This document shows, piece after piece, positions 2 through 11,808 of a DNA stretch of 14,582 bases. The stretch lies in contig SCQK01000010.1 in NCBI GenBank assembly GCA_004321885.1, positions 1-14,582 of the forward strand, read 5' to 3'. The notes under the pieces are model-generated. The model was not told where the DNA came from. It saw only the letters and a program-made list of their open reading frames with translations, and did no database searches. This DNA is from Patescibacteria group bacterium (lineage in GTDB: Bacteria > Patescibacteriota > Patescibacteriia > Magasanikbacterales > GWA2-37-8). How positions within the stretch are numbered: position 1 is the first letter of the stretch; every line of letters begins with the position of its first letter. The position numbers were made by a program, and so were the translations under genes.

Positions 2-1564
2 GAAACGATGACAAACAGGAATGCCGGGACCCAGGACCCGGGAACATTGGTGGACGGGTCGTTTGAAATCGGCAGAAGAAATTACGCCTCCGGGTATTAT
101 TATTACACTGGTTCTATTGATGACGCGCGCGTGTATAATCGTGTTCTGTCGGCCAGCGAAATAATGCAACTATACAAAATGGGAGTGGCCAAGGTGGCCA
201 AAACCCCCACGCCGGCCGCCGGAAGCAACTCCCTCAAAACCGGCCTGGTGGGCTGGTGGACTTTTGACGGCGCCGATGTGACGACGAATACCACGACCGA
301 CAAAAGCGGGAACGGGAACAACGGGGCAAGAGGCGTTGGCACAACAGTTGCCACCGGCAAACTGGGACAGGCAATGAAGTTTAACGGCTCCACTGAAAGT
401 ATTTTGGTTACTGATTCGCCATCTTTAAGTATCACGGACAAAATTACTATTTCCGCCTGGGCCAAGTGGACAACCGGCGGTTCTGATTCCGACGCGTATC
501 TTCTAAGTAAAGGAACGGATAAGTATAATTTCCTTATTTATGCCGTGGACGCCGGCAAGATGACTTTTTTGATCAGCGCGTTGTCTCCAAGCACCACTTT
601 AAAAACAGTCGGTGCTTATAACAATAACAAATGGCATCTTTTTACAGGAACATACGACCCTAACGGCGGTACAAACAACATAAAAATATACGTGGATGGC
701 GTATTGGAAAATCAGGCAACTAAAACCGGTTCGCCATCCGACGACGCCAATGGTCTGGGGATAGGCAGATATGGCACTGGCGGGAATTATCGCTGGAATG
801 GCTCCATTGACGACGCCCGCGTGTACAATCGCGTCTTGACGGCTGCCGAAGTAATGCAACTATACAAAATGGGAGTGGCCAAGGTGGCCAAAACCCCCAC
901 TCCGTCCGCCGGCAGTAACTCGCTCAAAACCGGCCTGGTGGGTTGGTGGACAATGGATGGCAGGGATACAACGGCTACCGCCGTGAACGACAAAAGCGGT
1001 TCCGGCAATAATGGCACTCGGACAGGCGGCAAAGTCGCGAGCGGCAAATTGGGACAGGCAATAAAGTTTAATGGAAGCACAGAATACATTACCACGGTTG
1101 ATAGTCCGTTTGATTTTGGCACTGGCAATTTTACAGCCGCGGCCTGGTTCAAAGTCAGCACCCAAGCGGAAGCTAACGCGATTTTAGATAAGTATGGCGC
1201 CGGCGGCGCGGGAGACAAGGGGTGGATTTTGTGGGCTAATTCTACCGGGAACAATAAATTGCTGGGTTTTATTGATAATGGAAGCGTTGATATGACCGGA
1301 GCGACCTCGCTTGTTGTCGGGAGATGGTATCACGCCGCGCTGGTAAGAAATGGCGACATTGGTTATTTGTATTTGAATGGTGTCCAAGACGCAAGTTTAG
1401 GCGGGTTGGCCGCGAGAAATGCTGTTTCTAATGTAGCGATGCAGATTGGCTCAGAAAATGGCAGCGCGACCTATGCTTTTAACGGCTCTATTGACGACGC
1501 CCGCGTCTACAACCGCGCCCTGTCGGCCAGCGAAATAATGCAGTTGTACAAGATGGGGAGATAA
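2..1564 (+). CDS. 5'-partial surface-type protein built of tandem LamG (concanavalin A-like lectin/glucanase) jelly-roll domains
   Basis: ORF 8..1564 is open to the window edge (no stop in frame at 2..7). The product has three copies of the LamG C-terminal strand motif GSIDDARVYNR(V/A)L(S/T)A(S/A)E(I/V)MQLYKMG at about 229-aa spacing. Each copy is preceded by a beta-rich segment (..SGKLGQA(M/I)KFNGSTE.., ..WHLFTGTYD.. / ..WYHAALVRNG..). The first motif lies only about 35 aa into the ORF, so the first domain must begin upstream of the window. Stop is TAA at 1562..1564. Confidence 0.75.
   Translation, partial: ETMTNRNAGTQDPGTLVDGSFEIGRRNYASGYYYYTGSIDDARVYNRVLSASEIMQLYKMGVAKVAKTPTPAAGSNSLKTGLVGWWTFDGADVTTNTTTDKSGNGNNGARGVGTTVATGKLGQAMKFNGSTESILVTDSPSLSITDKITISAWAKWTTGGSDSDAYLLSKGTDKYNFLIYAVDAGKMTFLISALSPSTTLKTVGAYNNNKWHLFTGTYDPNGGTNNIKIYVDGVLENQATKTGSPSDDANGLGIGRYGTGGNYRWNGSIDDARVYNRVLTAAEVMQLYKMGVAKVAKTPTPSAGSNSLKTGLVGWWTMDGRDTTATAVNDKSGSGNNGTRTGGKVASGKLGQAIKFNGSTEYITTVDSPFDFGTGNFTAAAWFKVSTQAEANAILDKYGAGGAGDKGWILWANSTGNNKLLGFIDNGSVDMTGATSLVVGRWYHAALVRNGDIGYLYLNGVQDASLGGLAARNAVSNVAMQIGSENGSATYAFNGSIDDARVYNRALSASEIMQLYKMGR
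110..1564 (+). repeat. Intragenic tandem repeat inside the LamG gene. About 150-nt blocks of high nucleotide identity at 110..262 and 800..952 (period 690 nt). A third partial copy at 1484..1564 (period 684 nt)
   Basis: Direct comparison: ggttctattgatgacgcgcgcgtgtataatcgtgttctgtcggccagcgaaataatgcaactatacaaaatgggagtggccaaggtggccaaaacccccac.. versus ggctccattgacgacgcccgcgtgtacaatcgcgtcttgacggctgccgaagtaatgcaactatacaaaatgggagtggccaaggtggccaaaacccccac... These encode the domain end plus the VAKVAKTPTP(A/S)AGSNSLKTGLVGWWT linker. Confidence 0.8.
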
Positions 1565-1570
1565 GCTATG
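1491..1570 (+). repeat. 80-bp direct repeat, copy 1. Covers the last 25 codons of the LamG gene, its stop, and the RBS plus ATG
   Basis: 1491..1570 matches 2185..2264 at 77 of 80 positions (mismatches at 1512/2206, 1549/2243, 1565/2259). In this copy the terminal ATG (1568) opens only M-L-L-V-stop. Confidence 0.9.
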
Positions 1571-1586
1571 TTACTAGTGTAGTATT

Positions 1587-1865
1587 ATGAAAGCCGAAAA
1601 AGTGAAGGAGATAGTGATGTATTGGCGCAAAACCGCCGAGCACGACTACGAAACAATGCTTGGGCTATTTAGAATTAAACGATATTCTGACGCGTTGTTT
1701 TATTTTGACAAAGCGACTGTTAAACTGCTGAACACCTTTAATGATTTTAATATTAGATGCAGGTACCCTGAATACAAGCTGGCGTTTTACAAAAGATGCA
1801 CCAGAGGATACGCCGGCAGACAATTGAAAGAGATGAAAAAAATTTACCACGGCTTGGAAAAATAA
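1587..1865 (+). CDS. HEPN-domain protein, the putative toxin or substrate-binding partner of the adjacent nucleotidyltransferase. Alternative start at 1617, which has a GGAG RBS
   Basis: Small all-helical product. AEHDYETMLGLFRIKRYSDALFYFDKATVKLL fits the HEPN first-helix pattern (A..D...A..l...g.y..A.f....A.EK.LK). C-terminal ..NIRCRYPEYKLAFYKR.. fits the HEPN R-Y-P..Y motif. It is paired with a minimal-nucleotidyltransferase gene. AT-rich relative to flanks. Confidence 0.55.
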   Translation: MKAEKVKEIVMYWRKTAEHDYETMLGLFRIKRYSDALFYFDKATVKLLNTFNDFNIRCRYPEYKLAFYKRCTRGYAGRQLKEMKKIYHGLEK

Positions 1866-2179
1866 TATGTCCAAAAAAAGCAAAATTAATAGCGAAACAA
1901 TACGCGAAAAAATTAAAAGAAAATAATTTTTCATTTTTTGCCGTATATATTTTTGGCTCGCAAATTAAGGGGAAATCGGATAAGTGGAGCGACATTGATG
2001 TGGCTGTCGTTTCCGATAAATTTAGAAGAAATTACGATAAAAATAGGTTTAAGTTGTGGGACATACGTTTGGAGGTGGACAGCCGGATAGAGCCGCATGG
2101 TTTTTCAGTGAAAGATTTTAAGGATGACGCCAATCCGGTGGCTTATGAAATAAGAAAGACCGGAGTAAAAGTGGCGTAA
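1796..2179 (+). CDS. Minimal nucleotidyltransferase (MNT, Pol-beta superfamily), putative antitoxin partner of the HEPN protein
   Basis: Product has the nucleotidyltransferase signature ..FAVYIFGSQIKGKSDKWSDIDVAVVSD.. (hG[GS] followed by the D-x-D metal ligands). ATG 1796 is the only ATG/GTG/TTG start in this frame downstream of the frame-opening stop at 1769..1771, so the gene overlaps the HEPN gene by 70 nt. The overlap makes the exact start uncertain. Confidence 0.6.
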   Translation: MHQRIRRQTIERDEKNLPRLGKIICPKKAKLIAKQYAKKLKENNFSFFAVYIFGSQIKGKSDKWSDIDVAVVSDKFRRNYDKNRFKLWDIRLEVDSRIEPHGFSVKDFKDDANPVAYEIRKTGVKVA

Positions 2180-2184
2180 ATCAG

Positions 2185-2264
2185 TTGACGACGCCCGCGT
2201 CTACAGCCGCGCCCTGTCGGCCAGCGAAATAATGCAGTTGTATAAGATGGGGAGATAAACTATG
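2185..2264 (+). repeat. 80-bp direct repeat, copy 2. A dead duplicate of the LamG gene 3' end (VDDARVYSRALSASEIMQLYKMGR-stop), then the functional RBS/ATG of the 2262..2768 gene
   Basis: See copy 1. The reading frame of the duplicated gene end is not part of any long ORF. GGGGAG lies 9 nt upstream of ATG 2262. Confidence 0.9.
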
Positions 2265-2768: not shown

Positions 2769-2787
2769 TGATGAAAGGCCGATTCTA

Positions 2788-2816
2788 TTGAAAGTTTAGG
2801 TTGTCCGATGTAGAAT
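2788..2816 (+). promoter_or_regulatory. Sigma70-like promoter TTGAAA-N17-TAGAAT. The predicted transcription start coincides with the A of ATG 2823 (leaderless transcript?)
   Basis: TTGAAA at 2788..2793, 17-nt spacer, TAGAAT at 2811..2816. The -10 ends 6 nt before ATG 2823. Confidence 0.4.
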
Positions 2817-2822
2817 GGAAGT

Positions 2823-3017
2823 ATGAAGAAAGAAAATAATAAGCACAAATTTTATAGAGTATATGCGAATCTGCCTCTGAATTTAAGGTCGGAAATAATT
2901 TTAGTTTTGCCCGGGAAAGGGCCTATTACTTGGAATGTAGCGTATTTAGAAATTGAAAACGAGACTGAATTGGGTGAAATAATTTTGGAAAAATTGGAGG
3001 CATTGCAAATAATATAA
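2823..3017 (+). CDS. Hypothetical small protein (64 aa), acidic C-terminus
   Basis: ORF directly after the promoter. AT-rich. No recognisable motif. First gene of a tightly packed four-gene cluster. Confidence 0.45.
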   Translation: MKKENNKHKFYRVYANLPLNLRSEIILVLPGKGPITWNVAYLEIENETELGEIILEKLEALQII

Positions 3018-3020
3018 AAT

Positions 3021-3233
3021 ATGGAAATTGCGCAAGAAATAAAGGATTTGGTTGTGGCCAGATTGAAAACACTACCGGAGAATACCGGAATTTCCATAGG
3101 GTCCATGGGGAATTTTAGCAAACAAGATTTAATTTCTCACGTGGAAGAAGGAGACGAAGTGGGTCAAAAAATCGCGGAAGTGGAACTGTCTTTTTTGCGC
3201 GGGTTGAAAGACGACATTCTGTATGAATCATAA
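3021..3233 (+). CDS. Hypothetical small acidic protein (70 aa)
   Basis: ORF begins 3 nt after the previous stop. Its stop overlaps the next gene's start by 11 nt (translational coupling). No recognisable motif. Confidence 0.45.
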   Translation: MEIAQEIKDLVVARLKTLPENTGISIGSMGNFSKQDLISHVEEGDEVGQKIAEVELSFLRGLKDDILYES

Positions 3234-3867
3234 AATATTAATTACCCGCCCCAATTACGATTTGACAACTCGTTATATTTCAAGTTGGGCCAAGAATATT
3301 ATTAAATTTGCCGAAGAAAAGGGAAGCGTGGTGCTGGATTTGGAAAAGGAGCGGGCGAATCGTAAAGAATTTGAAAGCATGATAAGAAAACATGAGCCAC
3401 CGTTGATATTTTTAAACGGACACGGCGATTATGATTTAGTTACCGGGCAGGAGGAAGACGTGTTGGTGCGCGTCGGCGATAATGAGACTTTGTTGGATTC
3501 AAAAGTTGTTTATGCGCTATCATGTCGTTCAGGCAAGAAGTTGGGCCCCGAGAGCGTGAAGCGCGGAGCTAAGGCCTACATCGGATATAAGGAGGATTTT
3601 ATTTTTTTATACAACGAAGAACAAAAATCCAGACCCGAACAAGATAAAACAGCCGAGATTTTTTCAGAGCCGTCAAATCAGGTAATGGTTTCTTTGTTAA
3701 AAAATCACACGGCGAAAGAGGCCTGCAAGAAAAGCAAGGAATCATATTTTCGGCGGATTAGAAAATTGCTTTATAGCAAAGCTACGAGCGCGGAGAGTGC
3801 GGTTGTTAGATTTTTAATTTGGGATATGCAAAATTTGGTTTGCTATGAGCAAGAGGCGCAAAAATAA
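3223..3867 (+). CDS. Putative caspase-like (caspase-hemoglobinase fold, clan CD-like) cysteine peptidase domain protein
   Basis: Predicted alternating beta/alpha order: KILIT, helix, VVLDL, helix, PLIFLNGHG (His-Gly after strand 3), then VVYALSCRSG (Cys after strand 4). This is the topology and dyad placement of caspase/metacaspase/gingipain-type peptidases (compare metacaspase H-Y-S-G-H-G and D-S-C-H-S-G). The His-Cys spacing of about 33 aa is on the short side. Call is tentative. Confidence 0.35.
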   Translation: MNHKILITRPNYDLTTRYISSWAKNIIKFAEEKGSVVLDLEKERANRKEFESMIRKHEPPLIFLNGHGDYDLVTGQEEDVLVRVGDNETLLDSKVVYALSCRSGKKLGPESVKRGAKAYIGYKEDFIFLYNEEQKSRPEQDKTAEIFSEPSNQVMVSLLKNHTAKEACKKSKESYFRRIRKLLYSKATSAESAVVRFLIWDMQNLVCYEQEAQK

Positions 3868-3904
3868 CAACAAAACAAAACCAAAGTATTAAGTCAAGGA
3901 GAGT

Positions 3905-6055
3905 ATGCGTGTCTTGGCAGAAGAAAATTTTGAGAAAGAAGTCAAGGAAAATTTTTTGTTTCAATTTTTCGTTCCCAAAGCCGGCGTTTATTTTATTGAA
4001 ATCAGCGCGTCAGCCAAGAGCTGGTGGCAGAATTTATTAAAGTTTCGTTCGTTTTTTCGCGATGATGATTTGGCTTTAAAAATAGACGAGTCCGGATTTG
4101 ACAAACTTTCCGGCAAACGGGGCATATTTGATGGTGAAGCGGCGTGGAACGGCAACAAGTTGAAGAGTTTGGAGCAAACTATTGTTTTTTTACTGCCGCT
4201 TGGCGCCGGGGCGCACAAAATACAATTTTTTTCCGACCAAAGACCGGTTCTAAAAAAAATTATTGTCTACGAAAGTGGGAGAAATATTTTATATTCGCCG
4301 TCACCCGCGTCGCCGCGGGATGGCAATCGCAGGCCATGGCTGACGTTCGCATTTAAGGACCTTGTGATAAAAAATCTAAAAGTGAAAGCCAAAGCGGACG
4401 CGGACAAAGACGATTCTGATATTAAACTTGTAATTAACGGTCAAGTTGAAAAAAACGAAGAGTCAAAATCGCACCATGGCTGGTATTGGTGCGGCCGTGT
4501 TTTGAAAGGGAAAGCTAAAATTTTTGATAAAAGTTTTAATCGTTCGGAAGGAAGCGCCCGTTTTATTGAATTTTGGACTGATGGAATGCCGTTGTTAGAA
4601 GAGATTAAAATGCGAGTGACGGAAAAGGGGGTTGAAAAAACCGGTCGGGTTGTCGTGCGTAAGGACATTGTCGGTTCGGGATTGTCGGAGGTAAACCTGC
4701 GCGCGGCGGCTGATGAGAATGGCGATATAACCGGGAAGATAAAAACAGGAGAAGAGGTGTTGATAGATGAAATAGCTGTTTCGGGTAGTAATGTGGCGGG
4801 TATGCTGTCAAATAATTGGCATGGAGTTTATTATAATGGAATGAGCGGGTATGTGCACTCTTCTCTCATAGAACTTGCGGGGCAAGAGAGAAAAAGAATT
4901 ACCGATTTTATTCAAACCAAAGCCGGAGAATTGGGGATTGATAAAAATTTAGCCTTGAATTTGGCTTACTGCGAATCAAAGTGGCTACCGTTCGCGATTT
5001 CGGAAACCGGGAATAAAGGCATTTTTGAACTCGGAGGGGATACAATAATTGAGATAAATGGGAAATTAGGCGGTAATATTCGCGACCCTTATGACCCGTG
5101 GCAAAATATTGACGGGGGCCTGAAATATTTGAGGTTTCTTTTAGAGAGATACAAAGACACAGAAAATAGTTTGGAAAAATCCATTACCGCGTGGAGCCGC
5201 GGACCGGACAGAGTGCCGTATAACAAGCCATTTGTTTACGCCGAGCAATCCAGAGGAGCGCAGGCGCTTCTTGATGGCGTTTTGAAATCAAAGGCAGGAG
5301 AGAATATATTAAAAGCACTCGGGGCGCTGGTTGTTTTTTTGATTTTAGGTTTTGGGGCCATTGCCTTCGCCTCAAGCGGCGACAACGCAAGGGAGCGGCT
5401 GTGGTATTTGAAATTGGAGCGCGGAGTTGAGCTTGGACTGGAGCACGCGGCCTGGCTCGTGGACATTGGCGAGGTTGACTTGGCGGACTTTGAAGATGAT
5501 TTTGATTTGGACGGCGAGTTTGAAAAAGTCCAATTTTTTGTTTTCCCCTCAAATGTTGATGACGGGTATTTTACCCGCGTATTTCTTTCGGCGACTGAAT
5601 ATTTTGACGTGGACGGCATATTTATAGAGGGCAAAGGTCTTGATTTAAACGGCGGCGGAGAAAAAGAGCTTTTTGTCAGGACTGTGAAAGATGATATTTT
5701 TAATTTGTATATTTTTAGTTTGCGGGATAAAAAATTGCGTTTGTTTCCAGTGTATGACAACGAGATTACGCGGGAAAATGTAAAGAGCATTAAGTCAAAA
5801 TTTAGAATAGAAAACACACGCACTGGTGATGGAGATGGGAATGAGGCGGTTGCCTTTATAGCCAAACGAGCCAATTATAAGGGAGAATATTGCGATTGGT
5901 ATAACACTTTGGAATATTACGAGTGGAATGGAGTCGGTTTTGAAAAAAGTAGGACAGAAGCAGAGCCGCTTTTTCCGGAGGGTCATTGCGCCGCCCCAAG
6001 CAGTAGACCCGAATTATATGGCCCTGCGCCCACCATACAATGGTCGGTGAATTAA
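3905..6055 (+). CDS. Multidomain protein. N-terminal beta-rich region, then bacterial SH3 (SH3b) domain, then SLT/GH23 lytic transglycosylase domain, then a single TM helix, then an acidic C-terminal domain
   Basis: AGGAGA RBS at 3895. SH3b match: VNLRAAADENGDITGKIKTGEEVLIDE...WHGVYYNGMSGYVHSSLIEL. SLT match: LAYCESKWLPFAISETGNKGIFELGG (catalytic E-S then A.S..G..G motif), DPYDPWQNIDGGLKYLRFLLERY (DP..NI..G..YL motif) and ITAWSRGPDRV (AYNAG-like motif). One hydrophobic helix ILKALGALVVFLILGFGAIAFASS at about residue 470. No N-terminal signal peptide. Confidence 0.8.
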   Translation: MRVLAEENFEKEVKENFLFQFFVPKAGVYFIEISASAKSWWQNLLKFRSFFRDDDLALKIDESGFDKLSGKRGIFDGEAAWNGNKLKSLEQTIVFLLPLGAGAHKIQFFSDQRPVLKKIIVYESGRNILYSPSPASPRDGNRRPWLTFAFKDLVIKNLKVKAKADADKDDSDIKLVINGQVEKNEESKSHHGWYWCGRVLKGKAKIFDKSFNRSEGSARFIEFWTDGMPLLEEIKMRVTEKGVEKTGRVVVRKDIVGSGLSEVNLRAAADENGDITGKIKTGEEVLIDEIAVSGSNVAGMLSNNWHGVYYNGMSGYVHSSLIELAGQERKRITDFIQTKAGELGIDKNLALNLAYCESKWLPFAISETGNKGIFELGGDTIIEINGKLGGNIRDPYDPWQNIDGGLKYLRFLLERYKDTENSLEKSITAWSRGPDRVPYNKPFVYAEQSRGAQALLDGVLKSKAGENILKALGALVVFLILGFGAIAFASSGDNARERLWYLKLERGVELGLEHAAWLVDIGEVDLADFEDDFDLDGEFEKVQFFVFPSNVDDGYFTRVFLSATEYFDVDGIFIEGKGLDLNGGGEKELFVRTVKDDIFNLYIFSLRDKKLRLFPVYDNEITRENVKSIKSKFRIENTRTGDGDGNEAVAFIAKRANYKGEYCDWYNTLEYYEWNGVGFEKSRTEAEPLFPEGHCAAPSSRPELYGPAPTIQWSVN

Positions 6056-6112
6056 AAAATTTTAGGAGATATATGTTAAATATTTTTAACGTAAAAAATC
6101 ATAACGGGAACC

Positions 6113-6191
6113 GCGATACCCCCTCCTCACCTCCCCCTTATAAAGGGGGAGGAGTCGCCGCCGCCGGTAATTCCTCCCCTATAAGGGGAGG
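6113..6191. repeat. Family-1 hairpin elements, two adjacent copies. ATACCCCCTC...CCTCCCCC-TTATAAA-GGGGGAGG at 6113..6152. A shorter CCTCCCC-TATAA-GGGGAGG at 6173..6191
   Basis: Perfect 8-bp stem with 7-nt loop at 6130..6152. The same 23-mer recurs at 8589..8611, and the 5' flank ATACCCCCTC recurs at 8575. Lies in the intergenic region after the 716-aa gene; no T-tract follows. Confidence 0.7.
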
Positions 6192-6270
6192 GACAACCCC
6201 CCACGCCAAAAATTTTGGTGTGGGGGTAAAGGGTGGGGTTAAAACAAATTTCACCAAATATCAGGACCCG

Positions 6271-7101
6271 GAAAAGGGGATGAGCGGCGGCCAGCTCAAA
6301 TGGAGTTTGTGGTTTTCGGGCCGTCGGGTGATTTTTTACCGGGCCGCGCTTATTTTTGTCGCGGCCGCGGCCATAATTATCTGGCTGTTCAGCCTGTGGC
6401 GTTGGGTATTTTTTATCATAGAAATTCCCGATGCCAGGCGCGTGCGCGCCGAGCTCGCCCGCTTTGACGATTATAGCATCATCAATCAACGCATCGGGTT
6501 TCAGCCGGTGCAGATTTTCGGCGCCCAGTTTTTGGCGAGCGGGAAAGACAAATACGACGTCGCGGCCGAGATGTTTAATCCGAACACGCGGTCAGTGGTG
6601 TTTTTTGATTATTATTTTTTTTATAATAATACCTCCACTCCAAAACAATCCGCGTTTTTATTGCCGGGCCAAAGGCGGCCGCTGGTGGCTTTGGGCCTGG
6701 CCGGCGCCGCGGGCGAGCCGGTTTTGCATATAGAAAACGTGAAGTGGAAAAAAATTTCCGCTCACGATGTCAGCGACCCGAAGCAGTATCAGGATTATCG
6801 CCTAAATTTCGCGGTGACGGATTTTGTTTTTTCACCGGCTTCGGAAAGCGGGGCCGATTTTCCGGCCGTGAAATTTAATTTGACCAATAACGGTCCGTAC
6901 AGCTATAATGCCCCCAAGTTTTTGATTGGGCTGACGCAAAATGAGGAGCTGGTGAGCGTTTTTAGGGCGGATTTTGCTTCGTTTGCGTATGGCGAGACAA
7001 AAAATATGGATATTCGGCTGTTTGTTCCGAATGCCTCGGCCGCGGGCGCGATTGTTTATCCGCTCATAAACATTTATGATAAGGAGGCCTATCTGCGATG
7101 A
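6271..7101 (+). CDS. Hypothetical membrane-anchored protein (N-terminal TM, then extracytoplasmic domain). Translationally coupled to the SEDS gene
   Basis: The ORF track gives 6040..7101, but the first 77 codons are low-complexity readthrough of the palindromic repeats. ATG 6271 is preceded by GAAAAGGGG. Product has a TM segment ALIFVAAAAIIIWLFSLWRWVFFII. Stop TGA overlaps the ATG of the next gene (ATGA at 7098). Confidence 0.6.
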   Translation, partial: EKGMSGGQLKWSLWFSGRRVIFYRAALIFVAAAAIIIWLFSLWRWVFFIIEIPDARRVRAELARFDDYSIINQRIGFQPVQIFGAQFLASGKDKYDVAAEMFNPNTRSVVFFDYYFFYNNTSTPKQSAFLLPGQRRPLVALGLAGAAGEPVLHIENVKWKKISAHDVSDPKQYQDYRLNFAVTDFVFSPASESGADFPAVKFNLTNNGPYSYNAPKFLIGLTQNEELVSVFRADFASFAYGETKNMDIRLFVPNASAAGAIVYPLINIYDKEAYLR

Positions 7102-8236: not shown

Positions 8237-8575
8237 ATGTCTTTTAATAAAAAAAGCAAGGGATTTTCCGAGTGGGAGCAGAGCGCGAAGATGCTCGGCA
8301 CCTGTACGGTTTGCGGGCGGGCCTATGGCTCGGGCAAAATGAAAATTCTGAAAAATGAAAAAAAGTCGCGCCTTTTGCACGCGACTTGCGCGTTTTGCAA
8401 CAGTCATTTTATGGCCATGCTGATGAAAATGGGCGGCGGGATGAGCACGATAGGCATGGTGACGGATTTGAGCCTGAATGATTCCAGGCGCCTGCTGGAT
8501 AAAGCGCCGATTACCGTGAATGAAGCCATAGAGGGGTATAAATATATCAATGAAAAGTTTTCACAAGCGAAGTAA
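8237..8575 (+). CDS. Hypothetical small protein with a CxxC...CxxC zinc-ribbon motif
   Basis: Product contains CTVCG and CAFCN 26 residues apart. No family recognised. Confidence 0.5.
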   Translation: MSFNKKSKGFSEWEQSAKMLGTCTVCGRAYGSGKMKILKNEKKSRLLHATCAFCNSHFMAMLMKMGGGMSTIGMVTDLSLNDSRRLLDKAPITVNEAIEGYKYINEKFSQAK

Positions 8576-8624
8576 TACCCCCTCTTGTCCTCCCCCTTAT
8601 AAAGGGGGAGGTTAGGTAGGGGTA
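8575..8624. repeat. Family-1 hairpin element: ATACCCCCTCTTGTCCTCCCCCTTATAAAGGGGGAGG with an imperfect outer stem TACCCCCT/AGGGGTAT
   Basis: The 23-mer core is identical to 6130..6152. Located between the zinc-ribbon gene stop and the rplY RBS. Confidence 0.7.
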
Positions 8625-8630
8625 TATAAT

Positions 8631-9365: not shown

Positions 9366-10301
9366 TTATTTTATAGAAATTATTACCAGCCGATCTCGCC
9401 CCGCGAGGTCGGTTTTGATTTCGCAGGATGAGGCGGGCAGGTATTTTTTTATCAGGGTTTTTATGGCTTCGCTTTGGCGCGGGTCTATTTCCAGGAGTAT
9501 TGTCATTGCGAGGCCGCTTGCGGCCGAAGCAATCCCATCCGTTATGGCAAGGGATTGCTTTGCTCCACTTCGTTCCGTTCGCAATGACAGTTGGGACAAC
9601 AGTTCTTCGTACAGCGACAACCCGTTTATCGCGTCCGCGACCAGCGCGCCCCGCGGCTCTTTTTGGATAGAGGGTTCTTTGCCGTATTGCTCGGCCGTGA
9701 GATAGGGCAGATTGGCGGTGATGATGAGCGAAGAATATTGAATAGAGAATTGAGAATTATGGATAACGGGTTCCAGCAAATTTCCATGCAGAAATTTTAT
9801 TTTTACCCCGTGCTTTTTGGCGTTTTTTTTGGCGACGCGTAGGGCCGCGCGGGAAATGTCTGTGGCGATAAGTTTGATTGACCCCCTCTTAGTCTCCCCC
9901 TTAGGCGCGCTTCGCGCGCGGGAAGCAAGGGGGAGAGAACGAGCGACCGCAATCGGCATGCATCCGCTTCCCGTTCCTACGTCAATCAAAATCGTCTTCT
10001 CTATTCTCAATTCTCTATTCTCAATTCTTCGCACAACCTCCTCCACCATCAATTCGGTTTCGGGCCGGGGGATTAAGACATTTTTGTTCACCAAAAAATC
10101 CAGGCCGTAAAATTCCTTGTGTCCGGTGATGTAGGCGATGGGCCAGCCGCGCTCGCGGAGCCGGCAGTAGTATTTGAACTTCACCCGTTTCCAAAAACTC
10201 GGTTTGTATTCCGGGTGCGCCAAGATAAATTCGCGCGATTTGCCGATAGCGTGCGCTAAAAGAATTTCCGATTTAAGGTTTTCTAAACGTGAAAAAATCA
10301 T
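9366..10301 (-). CDS. prmC: Release factor glutamine methyltransferase PrmC (HemK). Carries two in-frame insertions that coincide with palindromic elements
   Basis: Motifs ..ILIDVGTGSGCMPIAVA.., ..LIITANLPYL.. (NPPY-type) and the C-terminal ..DLAGRDRLV... Extra segments LPLASRARSAPKGETKRGS and TERSGAKQSLAITDGIASAASGLAMT map exactly onto the repeats at 9881..9937 and 9502..9588. Confidence 0.85.
   Translation of the reverse strand: MIFSRLENLKSEILLAHAIGKSREFILAHPEYKPSFWKRVKFKYYCRLRERGWPIAYITGHKEFYGLDFLVNKNVLIPRPETELMVEEVVRRIENRELRIEKTILIDVGTGSGCMPIAVARSLPLASRARSAPKGETKRGSIKLIATDISRAALRVAKKNAKKHGVKIKFLHGNLLEPVIHNSQFSIQYSSLIITANLPYLTAEQYGKEPSIQKEPRGALVADAINGLSLYEELLSQLSLRTERSGAKQSLAITDGIASAASGLAMTILLEIDPRQSEAIKTLIKKYLPASSCEIKTDLAGRDRLVIISIK
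9502..9588. repeat. Family-2 palindromic element: GTCATTGCGAGG, GGCCGCTTGCGGCC, GAAGCAATCCC, loop, GGGATTGCTT, ...CGCAATGAC. Right arm degenerate. Sits in-frame inside prmC
   Basis: Nested inverted repeats read directly. Shares ends and inner arms with the copy at 10886..10978. On the minus strand it encodes ..LSLRTERSGAKQSLAITDGIASAASGLAMT... Confidence 0.75.
9881..9937. repeat. Family-1 related hairpin: ACCCCCTCTTAGTCTCCCCCTT with a 10-bp stem TCTCCCCCTT/AAGGGGGAGA around a GC-palindromic loop GCGCGCTTCGCGCGC. Sits in-frame inside prmC
   Basis: The 5' part matches the family-1 flank ACCCCCTCTT(G/A)T(C)CTCCCCCTT seen at 8577 and 6117. Encodes the PrmC insertion ARSLPLASRARSAPKGETKRGS. Confidence 0.7.
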
Positions 10302-11808
10302 AGCTGTTTAATTCTATCGGATTATTTATATCGCGCCAGCCTTTTTTCCGCAAAGCCGAGGCAATGTCAAGCTCGCCCAGCGCCGGGCTTTGCAAAAGCA
10401 AAAGTTCGTCAAAATTTTTCAGGTTCGCGCTTTCTATCCAACCGTTGATTTCTTTCTCATCGCGATTCCAGCGCCAATAATTTTTCGTTATCACGTCAAA
10501 ATCATAATTGGCGCCAAGGCCCGGGCCCCGATAGGGGACAAGCTGAATCGGGATTTTGATGTAGCGTTCCAAGAGGGGTTTGTCTATAAAATTGCTGTAC
10601 ACCAGCGCCTGTTTTTTGGACGGATTGTAGCGGGCGGAGATTTCTTGGCGCAGGGGCCGCCAGTCATTGAGCGGCAACATTGAGTTTAGTTTTTGCAGAC
10701 CGGGCAGAGAAATAACAACCGTCGCCAAGACCACCCATTGCCAGCGCCCCAGAAATCGCCAGAGCAAAAAAGCCATCAGCAGGATGACCCACGGATAAGC
10801 GGTTTCCACGAATTTGATGTCGTAAAGCCCGAGGGCGTAAGACACGATAAGGGGAAAGAGAATGAGCACGAGGAGGGGAATTACTGTCATTGCGAGGCCT
10901 GAGGCCGAAGCAATCCCTTCCGATAAAGTTTGGGATTGCTTCGTCGTCCGGTCATCCGACCGGACTCCTCGCAATGACAAAACCAAGCCGGCGGCAAATC
11001 CGGCCATGACAAGCAGGCCGAAAGGCCACCAAGCGATACCCGTAAACATTATTTGCATCGGGGTAATGAGTTGTAAAAATTTTGGCGGCACGTGCAAAAA
11101 CCACGCCAGTTGGGCCGTGTCTATATTGAATTTTGAGACAAGAGACGGGATGGCCCACACCAGCCAGAGGCCGGCTGGAGCAAGATTTATTTTAATCCAA
11201 CCCCGCAGCGCCGTTCCGCTGTCATTCCTCCGACTAAGTACTGGGGAATCCAGTATCAATATAATAAACTGGGCCGCGAAAACAAAAAGCGCGGTGAGGT
11301 GGGTGTAGAGGAGCAAGAGGGAAATGAGGGCGTAGAATGTCGCATCCGCCGCTCTTTGAGGACTTAAAAACACTCGTTCAAAATAATCAAAAGATAATAT
11401 TACCAGCAACAAAAATAGCGTGTAGCCGCGCCCGGTGGCCGAAAGCCAAATATGATAAGGAGAAATAGACAGCAGAAGGGCGGAGATAAGGGCTATATTT
11501 TCGTCAAACAACCTTTTGGTCACGCGATAGAGCGCCGCAATGCCCAGCAGTCCGAAAAGCAGGCTGGGCAAGCGCGTAAAAAATTCATTGGCCGGAAAAA
11601 TATAAAACCATAATTTTAGGAACAGCATGTGCAGGGGCGGATTGGTTTCCCATGTCCAAAATTGAATGCTTTGGCCCCATGGTTTTTGGCTGTAGGTGAA
11701 AGAAAATATTTCATCGTGCCAAAAATCGCCGTAGCGCGCCAGAACATACGCGCGCGCGGCCAGCGCGAGAAGCAAGATGATGATAAACAATTTCGCGGCT
11801 TTACGCAT
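10273..11808 (-). CDS. GT-C fold glycosyltransferase of the PMT/ArnT family (GT39/GT83-like), polytopic membrane protein
   Basis: N-terminal TM then the first-loop DE motif (..FWHDEIFSF..), ..[15 protein letters not shown].., about 11 predicted TM segments and a C-terminal soluble domain. Start overlaps the prfA stop by 8 nt; stop overlaps the prmC start by 29 nt. Contains two in-frame palindromic-element insertions. Confidence 0.75.
10886..10978. repeat. Family-2 palindromic element, intact copy. GTCATTGCGAGG, GCCTGAGGC, GAAGCAATCCC, loop, GGGATTGCTTC, TCCGGTCATCCGACCGGA, CCTCGCAATGAC. Sits in-frame inside the GT-C gene
   Basis: Perfect 12-bp terminal inverted repeat plus three internal hairpins. 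Encodes ..[32 protein letters not shown].. in the same relative frame as the prmC copy. Confidence 0.8.
11221..11251. repeat. Family-3 related degenerate hairpin GTCATTCC-TCCGACTAAGTACTG-GGGAATCC inside the GT-C gene
   Basis: Shares GTCATTCC and the CCGACTAAGT core with 12885..12915. Encodes [11 protein letters not shown] in frame. Confidence 0.5.

Follow-up and report, generated by a model that had tools for sequence, protein, structure and literature searches.

Among two-gene modules of the toxin-antitoxin (TA) type, the classical dyads of a HEPN-T protein (PF05168) and a minimal nucleotidyltransferase (MNT) are known as the AF0298, TM0613, TT1696 and ST0689 types (Makarova et al., 2009, PMC2701414; Anantharaman et al., 2013, PMC3710099). 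In HEPN-T proteins of the AF0298 type, the histidine of the Rx4-6H motif is absent, and a strongly conserved histidine located N-terminal to the motif was proposed as an alternative active site (Anantharaman et al., 2013, PMC3710099). The subject of the present work is a degenerate cassette of this kind, composed of a HEPN gene and a nucleotidyltransferase (NTase) gene and bracketed by an 80-nucleotide (nt) direct repeat of host sequence. It lies on a 14,582-bp NCBI contig (SCQK01000010.1; locus tags EPN28_) from a Patescibacteria metagenome-assembled genome (MAG); the genome is represented by that one contig, analysed over its entire length and hereafter called the window. With moderate confidence, the arrangement is read as a duplicative insertion that kept both neighbouring host genes intact and was followed by decay of the cassette.

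Like the HEPN-T/MNT dyads, the pair of the window consists of two small, adjacent and overlapping genes, with a match of an intact homologue to the HEPN fold on the one hand and the GS...DxD core of the NTase on the other hand, and like the AF0298 type in particular, its family lacks the histidine of Rx4-6H and has conserved histidines N-terminal to the motif. In contrast to these dyads, the copy of the window is broken in both genes, the HEPN gene comes first and the family is nearly confined to uncultured Patescibacteria-type contigs. With the type VII HepT/MntA system, it shares the pairing of an MNT-type NTase, here distantly MntA-like, with a HEPN protein. By homology, the family would have a TA function, where neutralisation of the HEPN toxin by the NTase is the likely shared logic. 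The two nonetheless differ in several respects, since the NTase scores under the MntA equivalog cut-off, the HEPN protein belongs to PF05168 and not to HepT/DUF86 (PF01934), the antitoxin-first order is reversed with HEPN preceding the NTase, and the canonical Rx4-6H histidine is not conserved.

The 80-nt repeat and the cassette it encloses

The features of the locus, all on the + strand, are as follows (aa, amino acids; ORF, open reading frame; GC, guanine plus cytosine content):

2-1564, +: LamG (Laminin_G_3) repeat gene, left end open at the contig edge; Pfam PF13385, 5.3e-59, in three stretches
1491-1570, +: repeat copy R1, comprising the functional last 74 nt of LamG, the TAA stop (1562-1564), GCT and a copy of the ATG of the downstream gene
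1568-1582, +: dead mini-ORF, M-L-L-V-stop, opened by the duplicated ATG and read directly from the sequence
1571-2184, +: insert of 614 nt, i.e., 16-nt leader, HEPN remnant, NTase and 5-nt trailer; GC 37.5%
1587-1865, +: remnant of the HEPN-T (PF05168) gene, 92 aa; in-frame loss of 37 codons at ~1703/1704, rearranged 3' end and premature stop
1796-2179, +: minimal nucleotidyltransferase ORF as annotated, 127 aa; PF18765 5.5e-10, PF01909 8.4e-8
1867-1879, +: family-position NTase start (start codon 1867-1869) and run of seven adenines (A7, 1873-1879) where the frame is lost
2185-2264, +: repeat copy R2, non-coding relic of the LamG 3' end (N to S, no ORF upstream) followed by a working ribosome-binding site (2249-2254) and the ATG at 2262
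2262-2768, +: downstream host gene (gene 2262), 168-aa membrane-anchored protein, function unassigned; LytR_C domain in distant relatives

The two copies of the repeat are identical at 77 of 80 positions (blastn E 1e-35), with 1512A/2206G, 1549C/2243T and 1565G/2259A as differences, and both translate in the LamG frame as (I/V)DDARVY(N/S)RALSASEIMQLYKMGR-stop. A preliminary description of this DNA had already reported 80-bp direct repeats holding the end of LamG, its stop and a start ATG, and this holds throughout, the right edge of R2 being exactly the ATG of gene 2262 and the corresponding ATG of R1 opening nothing beyond the mini-ORF. The GGGGAG start signal given in that description is likewise present, as a Shine-Dalgarno-like run at 1555-1560 in R1, though 7 nt and not 9 nt before the ATG. 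When two internal LamG domain ends were used as outgroups, R1 had the ancestral base and R2 the derived base at both polarisable positions, one of the two changes being non-synonymous (N to S); R2 is therefore the decaying copy, as had been supposed for the second LamG end. With a GC of 37.5%, against 50.8% for LamG and 54% for gene 2262, the insert is clearly the AT-richer part, as estimated earlier by eye. No terminal inverted repeats were found at its ends when looked for, and no transposase or integrase family was present among the gene calls of L001, a 9.7-kb Logan contig covering the window from 2213 to ~11950, in agreement with what had been noted before.

The insert holds two genes only, HEPN followed by MNT, and the earlier assignment to a TA-type pair of these families is borne out by Pfam profile searches, which match both. 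Respective to PF05168, the HEPN remnant scores 23.1 bits for a cut-off of 22, with only profile positions 2-38 of 117 matched, whereas the 80-odd homologues bearing PF05168 have 132-138 aa compared to 92 aa in the window. Protein alignment revealed a 37-residue internal deletion relative to all homologues, and DNA alignment a rearranged 3' end. Both residues H41 and H64, invariant in the family, fall within the deleted segment, and on this ground the predicted toxin of the window is dead. The AlphaFold (AF2) model of an intact homologue, P0129 (pLDDT 95.7), matches TT1696, ST0689, AF0298, TM0613 and the HEPN domain of sacsin (1ufb, 1wol, 2hsb, 1o3u and 3o10) with query-normalised TM-scores of 0.56-0.72. 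Across the family alignment, the HEPN motif reads R.RYPE(Y), with the R conserved and the H not.

As for the NTase, its body from ~1877 shows 65-68% identity to its homologues, a homogeneous set of 104-aa proteins, and has retained GS and DxD, the family invariants being G54, S55, D66 and D68, i.e., a Pol-beta-type GS...DxD core. The first ~23 residues of the annotated 127-aa ORF constitute an out-of-family extension. All homologues start with MSKxEAKK, and the same ATG exists in the window at 1867, but one frame off, where it opens a 19-aa peptide; if the A7 run is shortened by one A, a 103-aa family-like protein is recovered, MSKKAKLIAKQYAKKL... The frame loss at A7 could be a true pseudogene lesion, a phase-variable switch or a consensus error. 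The 127-aa ORF was annotated because the frame happens to stay open back to the ATG at 1796, before which no Shine-Dalgarno sequence was seen by eye, and GenBank lists both insert genes as ordinary proteins. The overlap of the two genes, also part of the preliminary description, is real, but its 70 nt result from the frameshift and do not represent the original design, since intact cassettes overlap by 19-28 nt at frame offset +2 and the overlap region of the window is rearranged. Against the MntA equivalog NCBIfam NF047752 (cut-off 60), the NTase of the window reaches 37.9 bits and a homologue 41.4 bits; similarity to MntA is distant (PDB 5yep, E 2e-5), and a match was obtained to the PADLOC candidate system PDC-S09. 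As such, the view of the insert as a recently acquired and working TA pair finds no support, given the 37-residue deletion, the loss of both invariant histidines, the rearranged HEPN 3' end and the NTase start at 1867 being out of frame.

The cassette family and its flanking duplications

At other loci (designated hereafter by L numbers), the cassette behaves as a conserved unit. HEPN and NTase, in this order, form a conserved pair in nearly all of the ~90 loci fetched; over ~80 loci, mostly from Patescibacteria, HEPN is nearly always directly upstream of the NTase and overlaps with it. The cassettes of L031 and L032 are 89% identical in different surroundings, and their similarity reaches from ~8 nt upstream of the HEPN ATG to ~7-10 nt beyond the NTase stop. 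Outside the genes, the only sequence conserved across 24 loci is a -10-like TAnAAT box situated 7-13 nt upstream of the HEPN ATG; past the NTase stop, no conserved sequence was found in these 24 loci, information content being about zero from the first base, and the cassette is therefore devoid of att- or attC-like ends. No match was obtained in IMG/VR and phage records, and one weak match in plasmid records. Erosion of HEPN with survival of the NTase is met repeatedly, by internal deletion (L025), by a split (L030), by fusion of 15 HEPN residues to the NTase (L037), or with a C-terminal relic only (L091 and L096/L097), which is the pattern expected if the toxin gene goes first. Canonical MNT-HepT (PF01934) type VII pairs occur near the HEPN-T/NTase cassette at L094 (3330-3972) and L007 (7478-8315), adjoining it or a few kb off, and the two coexist as separate modules.

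The first additional case of a flanking duplication was L007, where an intact cassette is flanked by a 106-120-nt repeat of the 3' part of the upstream pilin gene, and it led to a test of all loci, which amount to a few dozen metagenomic loci. With flanks of 700 nt, direct repeats were present at 12 of 36 non-redundant cassette loci compared to 2 of 60 shifted control intervals (Fisher p = 1e-4), inverted repeats being found at 1 of 36; with flanks of 1500 nt, 19 of 49 loci had direct and 4 of 49 inverted repeats. The repeats measure 26-217 nt, differ in sequence at every locus and correspond to pieces of the neighbouring host genes, duplicated 5' gene ends being as frequent as 3' ends. At L019, for instance, the first 44 nt of an atpG-like ORF are duplicated (98% over 44 nt; 100% over 41 nt), one copy lies 46 nt upstream of HEPN and the other 5 nt past the NTase stop, and the cassette sits between atpA and two truncated atpG starts. 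The repeats of L025 and L035 are 5' signal-peptide regions of the downstream gene, and those of L014 and L060 comprise a ribosome-binding site with the first codons, the L014 repeat being 39 nt long and 100% identical.

The pattern is not confined to HEPN-MNT, since a NYN-domain gene of L007 (4569-5231, within 4346-5462) has its own flanking repeat, namely two overlapping relics of the pilin 3' part at 4358-4450 and 5246-5338 (~93 nt, 86% identity), and its nested position suggests successive duplicative insertions at one site. Other structures of interest were observed at these loci. At L019, a 703-aa gene has a second copy of its last 130 nt (5446-5575 and 5902-6031, 92%), 326 nt downstream and with no clear ORF between, which gives this locus another gene-end relic besides those around its cassette. 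L037 (450-3330) is an array of two MazF/PemK-like genes, a 125-aa gene and a HEPN-NTase fusion relic, with copies of a 130-180-nt sequence in between and an ABC-2 transporter gene downstream. In the pair L031 (2133-2510) and L032 (1678-1887), one genome has a full pilin-like gene of the type IV secretion system (T4SS) upstream, whereas the other has only a 3' pilin fragment, located downstream; this is compatible with a structure originally flanked at both ends that underwent differential loss.

The copies of the repeat are 772-790 nt apart at L014, L019, L025 and L060, and the 694 nt of the window become about comparable once its 111-nt deletion is added. The LamG gene is itself made of domain units with a period of ~690 nt, each closed by an IDDARVYNR.L(S/T)A(S/A)E(I/V)MQLYKMG block, and a repeat family (D2) of the LamG region starts at 117, 807 and 1491, i.e., with steps of 690 and 684 nt. 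The idea that the cassette replaces a fourth LamG unit was rejected, the end of R1 being of the terminal type (stop, GCT, ATG) and not of the internal type; the 694-nt spacing was also rejected as a LamG period, because it reflects the 111-nt deletion, and the near-match is best taken as a coincidence.

Origin of the duplication

In the scenario favoured here as the simplest, an AT-rich foreign HEPN-T/MNT cassette, extending from the -10-like box that closely precedes the HEPN ATG to a few bases beyond the NTase stop, would have been inserted at the junction of LamG and gene 2262, and this insertion would have duplicated 80 nt of the target in such a way that R1 completes LamG and R2 starts gene 2262. 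Both host genes are intact because the duplicated block spans the LamG 3' end and stop as well as the ribosome-binding site and ATG of gene 2262; a simple insertion inside the block would truncate LamG or sever gene 2262 from its start signals. Later decay would have struck the toxin first, HEPN losing two helices and its invariant histidines; scrambling of the HEPN/NTase overlap would have put the NTase start out of frame, with R2 drifting. We infer that duplication and insertion were a single event, for which the candidates are widely staggered breaks filled in around a captured fragment, or a replication template switch returning 80 nt behind its departure point. Secondary spread may plausibly have proceeded by RecA-mediated excision and single-crossover (Campbell-type) re-entry of a small circle carrying the cassette and one repeat. 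Such a circle spreads an existing repeat-cassette-repeat structure and cannot create the first one. More generally, models by homologous recombination only push the problem back, because the donor must already have the cassette abutting the repeat, including the 6 nt that follow the LamG stop. Of the two mechanisms put forward in the preliminary description, duplicative insertion is thus the one retained, the same cassette family being flanked by host duplications at many unrelated loci without LamG.

Several observations weigh against this scenario. To our knowledge, no enzyme makes target duplications of such variable length (26-217 nt). No empty-site allele was found, for the window or any other locus: gene 2262, used for a protein-guided scan of the species genomes of GTDB, yielded nothing, the exact repeat pattern was absent from JGI metagenome contigs in an exact-pattern scan, and exact look-ups of the three window proteins led to no contig other than this one and a single Logan contig. 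Identity to the nearest relatives of gene 2262 does not exceed 61%, and their upstream neighbours are different. In the Logan assembly holding gene 2262, no record exists of the HEPN and NTase proteins, so the cassette is unconfirmed in that read set. With gene-anchored controls and 400-nt flanks, the enrichment in repeats is only modest (9/40 versus 3/51, p = 0.028), and none of the three hold-out loci fetched after the hypothesis was formed has flanking repeats, which is compatible with a rate of ~0.3 and brings no confirmation. Some of the repeats are terminator-like hairpins (L029, L030 and L038) or belong to repeat-rich arrays (L037, L069 and L076) and may have other origins, and the pilin fragments of L007, L031 and L032 could be relics of tandem paralogues. 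The three matches among the gene-anchored controls are accessory units themselves, including L030 and L037 (MazF-like cassettes). In the control of L030, an ORF resembling a tyrosine transposase associated with repetitive extragenic palindromes (REP), together with its repeats, was recognised by eye, no family search having been made.

Among the alternatives, the one that survives best, though unlikely, is that a LamG segment reaching to the ATG of gene 2262 had been duplicated in tandem and that the cassette landed in the redundant second copy, of which deletions left only the last 80 nt. The LamG gene is internally repetitive and recombination-prone, the L040 cassette sits between two paralogous segments of ~700 nt, the pilin loci of different genomes have a complete gene to one side and fragments to the other, and diverged partial copies, such as those of L025 (70-87% identity), look old. 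Yet this explanation requires several steps whose end points would have to fall within 16 nt and 5 nt of the cassette ends, and the same tight junctions recur in unrelated host genes at L019, L025 and L037. The repeats of L014 (39 nt, 100%) and L019 (98% over 44 nt) further argue for very recent small duplications and not for old paralogues.

Less probable still is site-specific integration, whereby the repeat would be the identity block of an att site at the LamG 3' end and the cassette an integrase-less element similar to a cis-mobilisable element (CIME), mobilised in trans or left over from an island. Integrative elements directed to the 3' ends of genes bring a substitute for the gene end with them, and direct repeats some tens of bases long result. 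Multi-cassette arrays with the same separating sequence (L007 and L037) also resemble accretion at one att site. As in CIMEs and in the products of single-crossover insertion-duplication, the direct repeats around a small cargo contain the 3' end of the upstream gene, with one intact copy and one truncated relic, and tandem or nested accretion is found (L007). The differences from CIMEs are the lack of any recombinase found in cis, repeats that vary per locus in sequence and length, and 5' gene ends being as common as 3' ends. No integrase was found in the window or the inspected loci, each locus would need its own recombinase as the repeat sequence differs per locus, both junctions are tight at several loci, unlike what random deletion of a larger island would give, and there is neither a tRNA at the site nor any presence of the cassette in viral contigs or phages, and hardly any in plasmids. 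With integron cassettes, these units have in common to be tight, promoter-poor, ORF-sized, often made of TA genes and sometimes arrayed, but no attC-like conserved or palindromic site follows the stop, no intI appears in the gene tables and the flanking repeats are host sequence. Insertion sequences and transposons differ by their transposase, their terminal inverted repeats and their short target duplications of fixed length, none of which is encountered here.

Homologous exchange with a paralogous LamG end already carrying the cassette, i.e., the first option of the preliminary description, appears improbable. It draws on the C-terminal LamG block being highly conserved and repeated, and on the presence of the same motif twice in a distant MAG contig, L010. 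However, R1 and R2 also share the 6 nt between the stop and the ATG of gene 2262, which is unexpected for a paralogue in another context, and the same bracketing at loci without LamG would be left unexplained. L010, the single and unrelated LamG-repeat contig returned by a degenerate repeat pattern in GTDB genomes (labelled as a Gammaproteobacteria MAG), has the C-terminal LamG DNA motif twice within 558-1967, in 206-nt exact repeats 648 nt apart, and is probably a similar LamG-repeat gene.

An independent Logan assembly (SRR8426592, contig L001) confirms the junction of R2 with gene 2262, and L001 begins exactly 30 nt ahead of the R2-specific base 2243, which is the behaviour of a k=31 graph when the reads hold both repeat variants. 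An assembly artefact, i.e., a cassette from elsewhere wrongly threaded through a shared repeat, is accordingly the least credible explanation: the contig is metagenome-assembled, the independent assembly breaks inside R2 and has no record of the cassette proteins, but three positions distinguish the copies, real reads are required to form each junction (R1 to leader, NTase stop to R2), a read is longer than the repeat, the break point of L001 fits two genuine variants, and imperfect flanking repeats recur across many independent assemblies.

Genomic surroundings and implications

The contig carries ordinary core genes, namely FtsW/RodA, L25, PrmC and a PMT_2 glycosyltransferase; ORFs for RF1, L31 and S2 were read by eye only, no family search having been made on those three. 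No tRNA or Rfam match was found anywhere in the window. Low GC is not exclusive to the insert, as the region 2769-3904 is likewise AT-rich (39% GC). It comprises three ORFs (64, 70 and 214 aa) without Pfam or PADLOC match, preceded by a good sigma-70-like promoter match at 2788-2816, and no flanking repeat was found around it when looked for; it may be another acquired islet. An element of ~55 nt (GTCATTGCGAGGCC...GAAGCAATCCC...GGGATTGCTT), forming a strong hairpin (z = -2.9 and -4.4), occurs at 9501-9560 and 10885-10941, in frame within two unrelated minus-strand genes, prmC and that of the PMT_2 glycosyltransferase, with an extra peptide in each; it is reminiscent of palindromic elements lying in frame within genes, for instance the Rickettsia palindromic elements (RPEs). 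Perfect hairpins of the CCTCCCCCTTATAAAGGGGGAGG type, nested within a longer palindrome (ATACCCC...GGGGTAT), are located at 6116-6196, at the start of ORF 6040-7101, and at 8575-8625, just past ORF 8237-8575. A similar one opens L008 (1-25), the contig of a distant relative, and these hairpins may be terminators or form a REP-like family.

The present locus and its relatives bear on the open question of the entry of TA and defence cassettes into chromosomes without transposase or integrase. The HEPN-MNT family has discrete borders, and in a quarter to a third of its loci host-derived flanking duplications preserve the neighbouring genes. Full-text literature searches brought up no account of long duplications of host sequence flanking HEPN-MNT or other TA cassettes, most subscription papers being beyond reach. 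A tentative generalisation, which for now is more doubtful than probable, would be that Patescibacteria, and perhaps other bacteria, gain promoter-to-stop defence and TA cassettes (HEPN-MNT, NYN or MazF-like) by a recombinase-free duplicative insertion copying tens to ~200 nt of the end of the target gene. If true, this route of gene gain, undescribed for TA or defence genes, would let neighbouring genes survive, leave gene-end relics as scars and allow arrays to build at one site. For annotation, short gene-end relics beside small AT-rich cassettes are to be read as insertion scars, and the genes of such cassettes may be pseudogenes. If the duplication is made at insertion, it would represent a mechanism of gene gain in streamlined uncultured bacteria that is testable with existing read sets.

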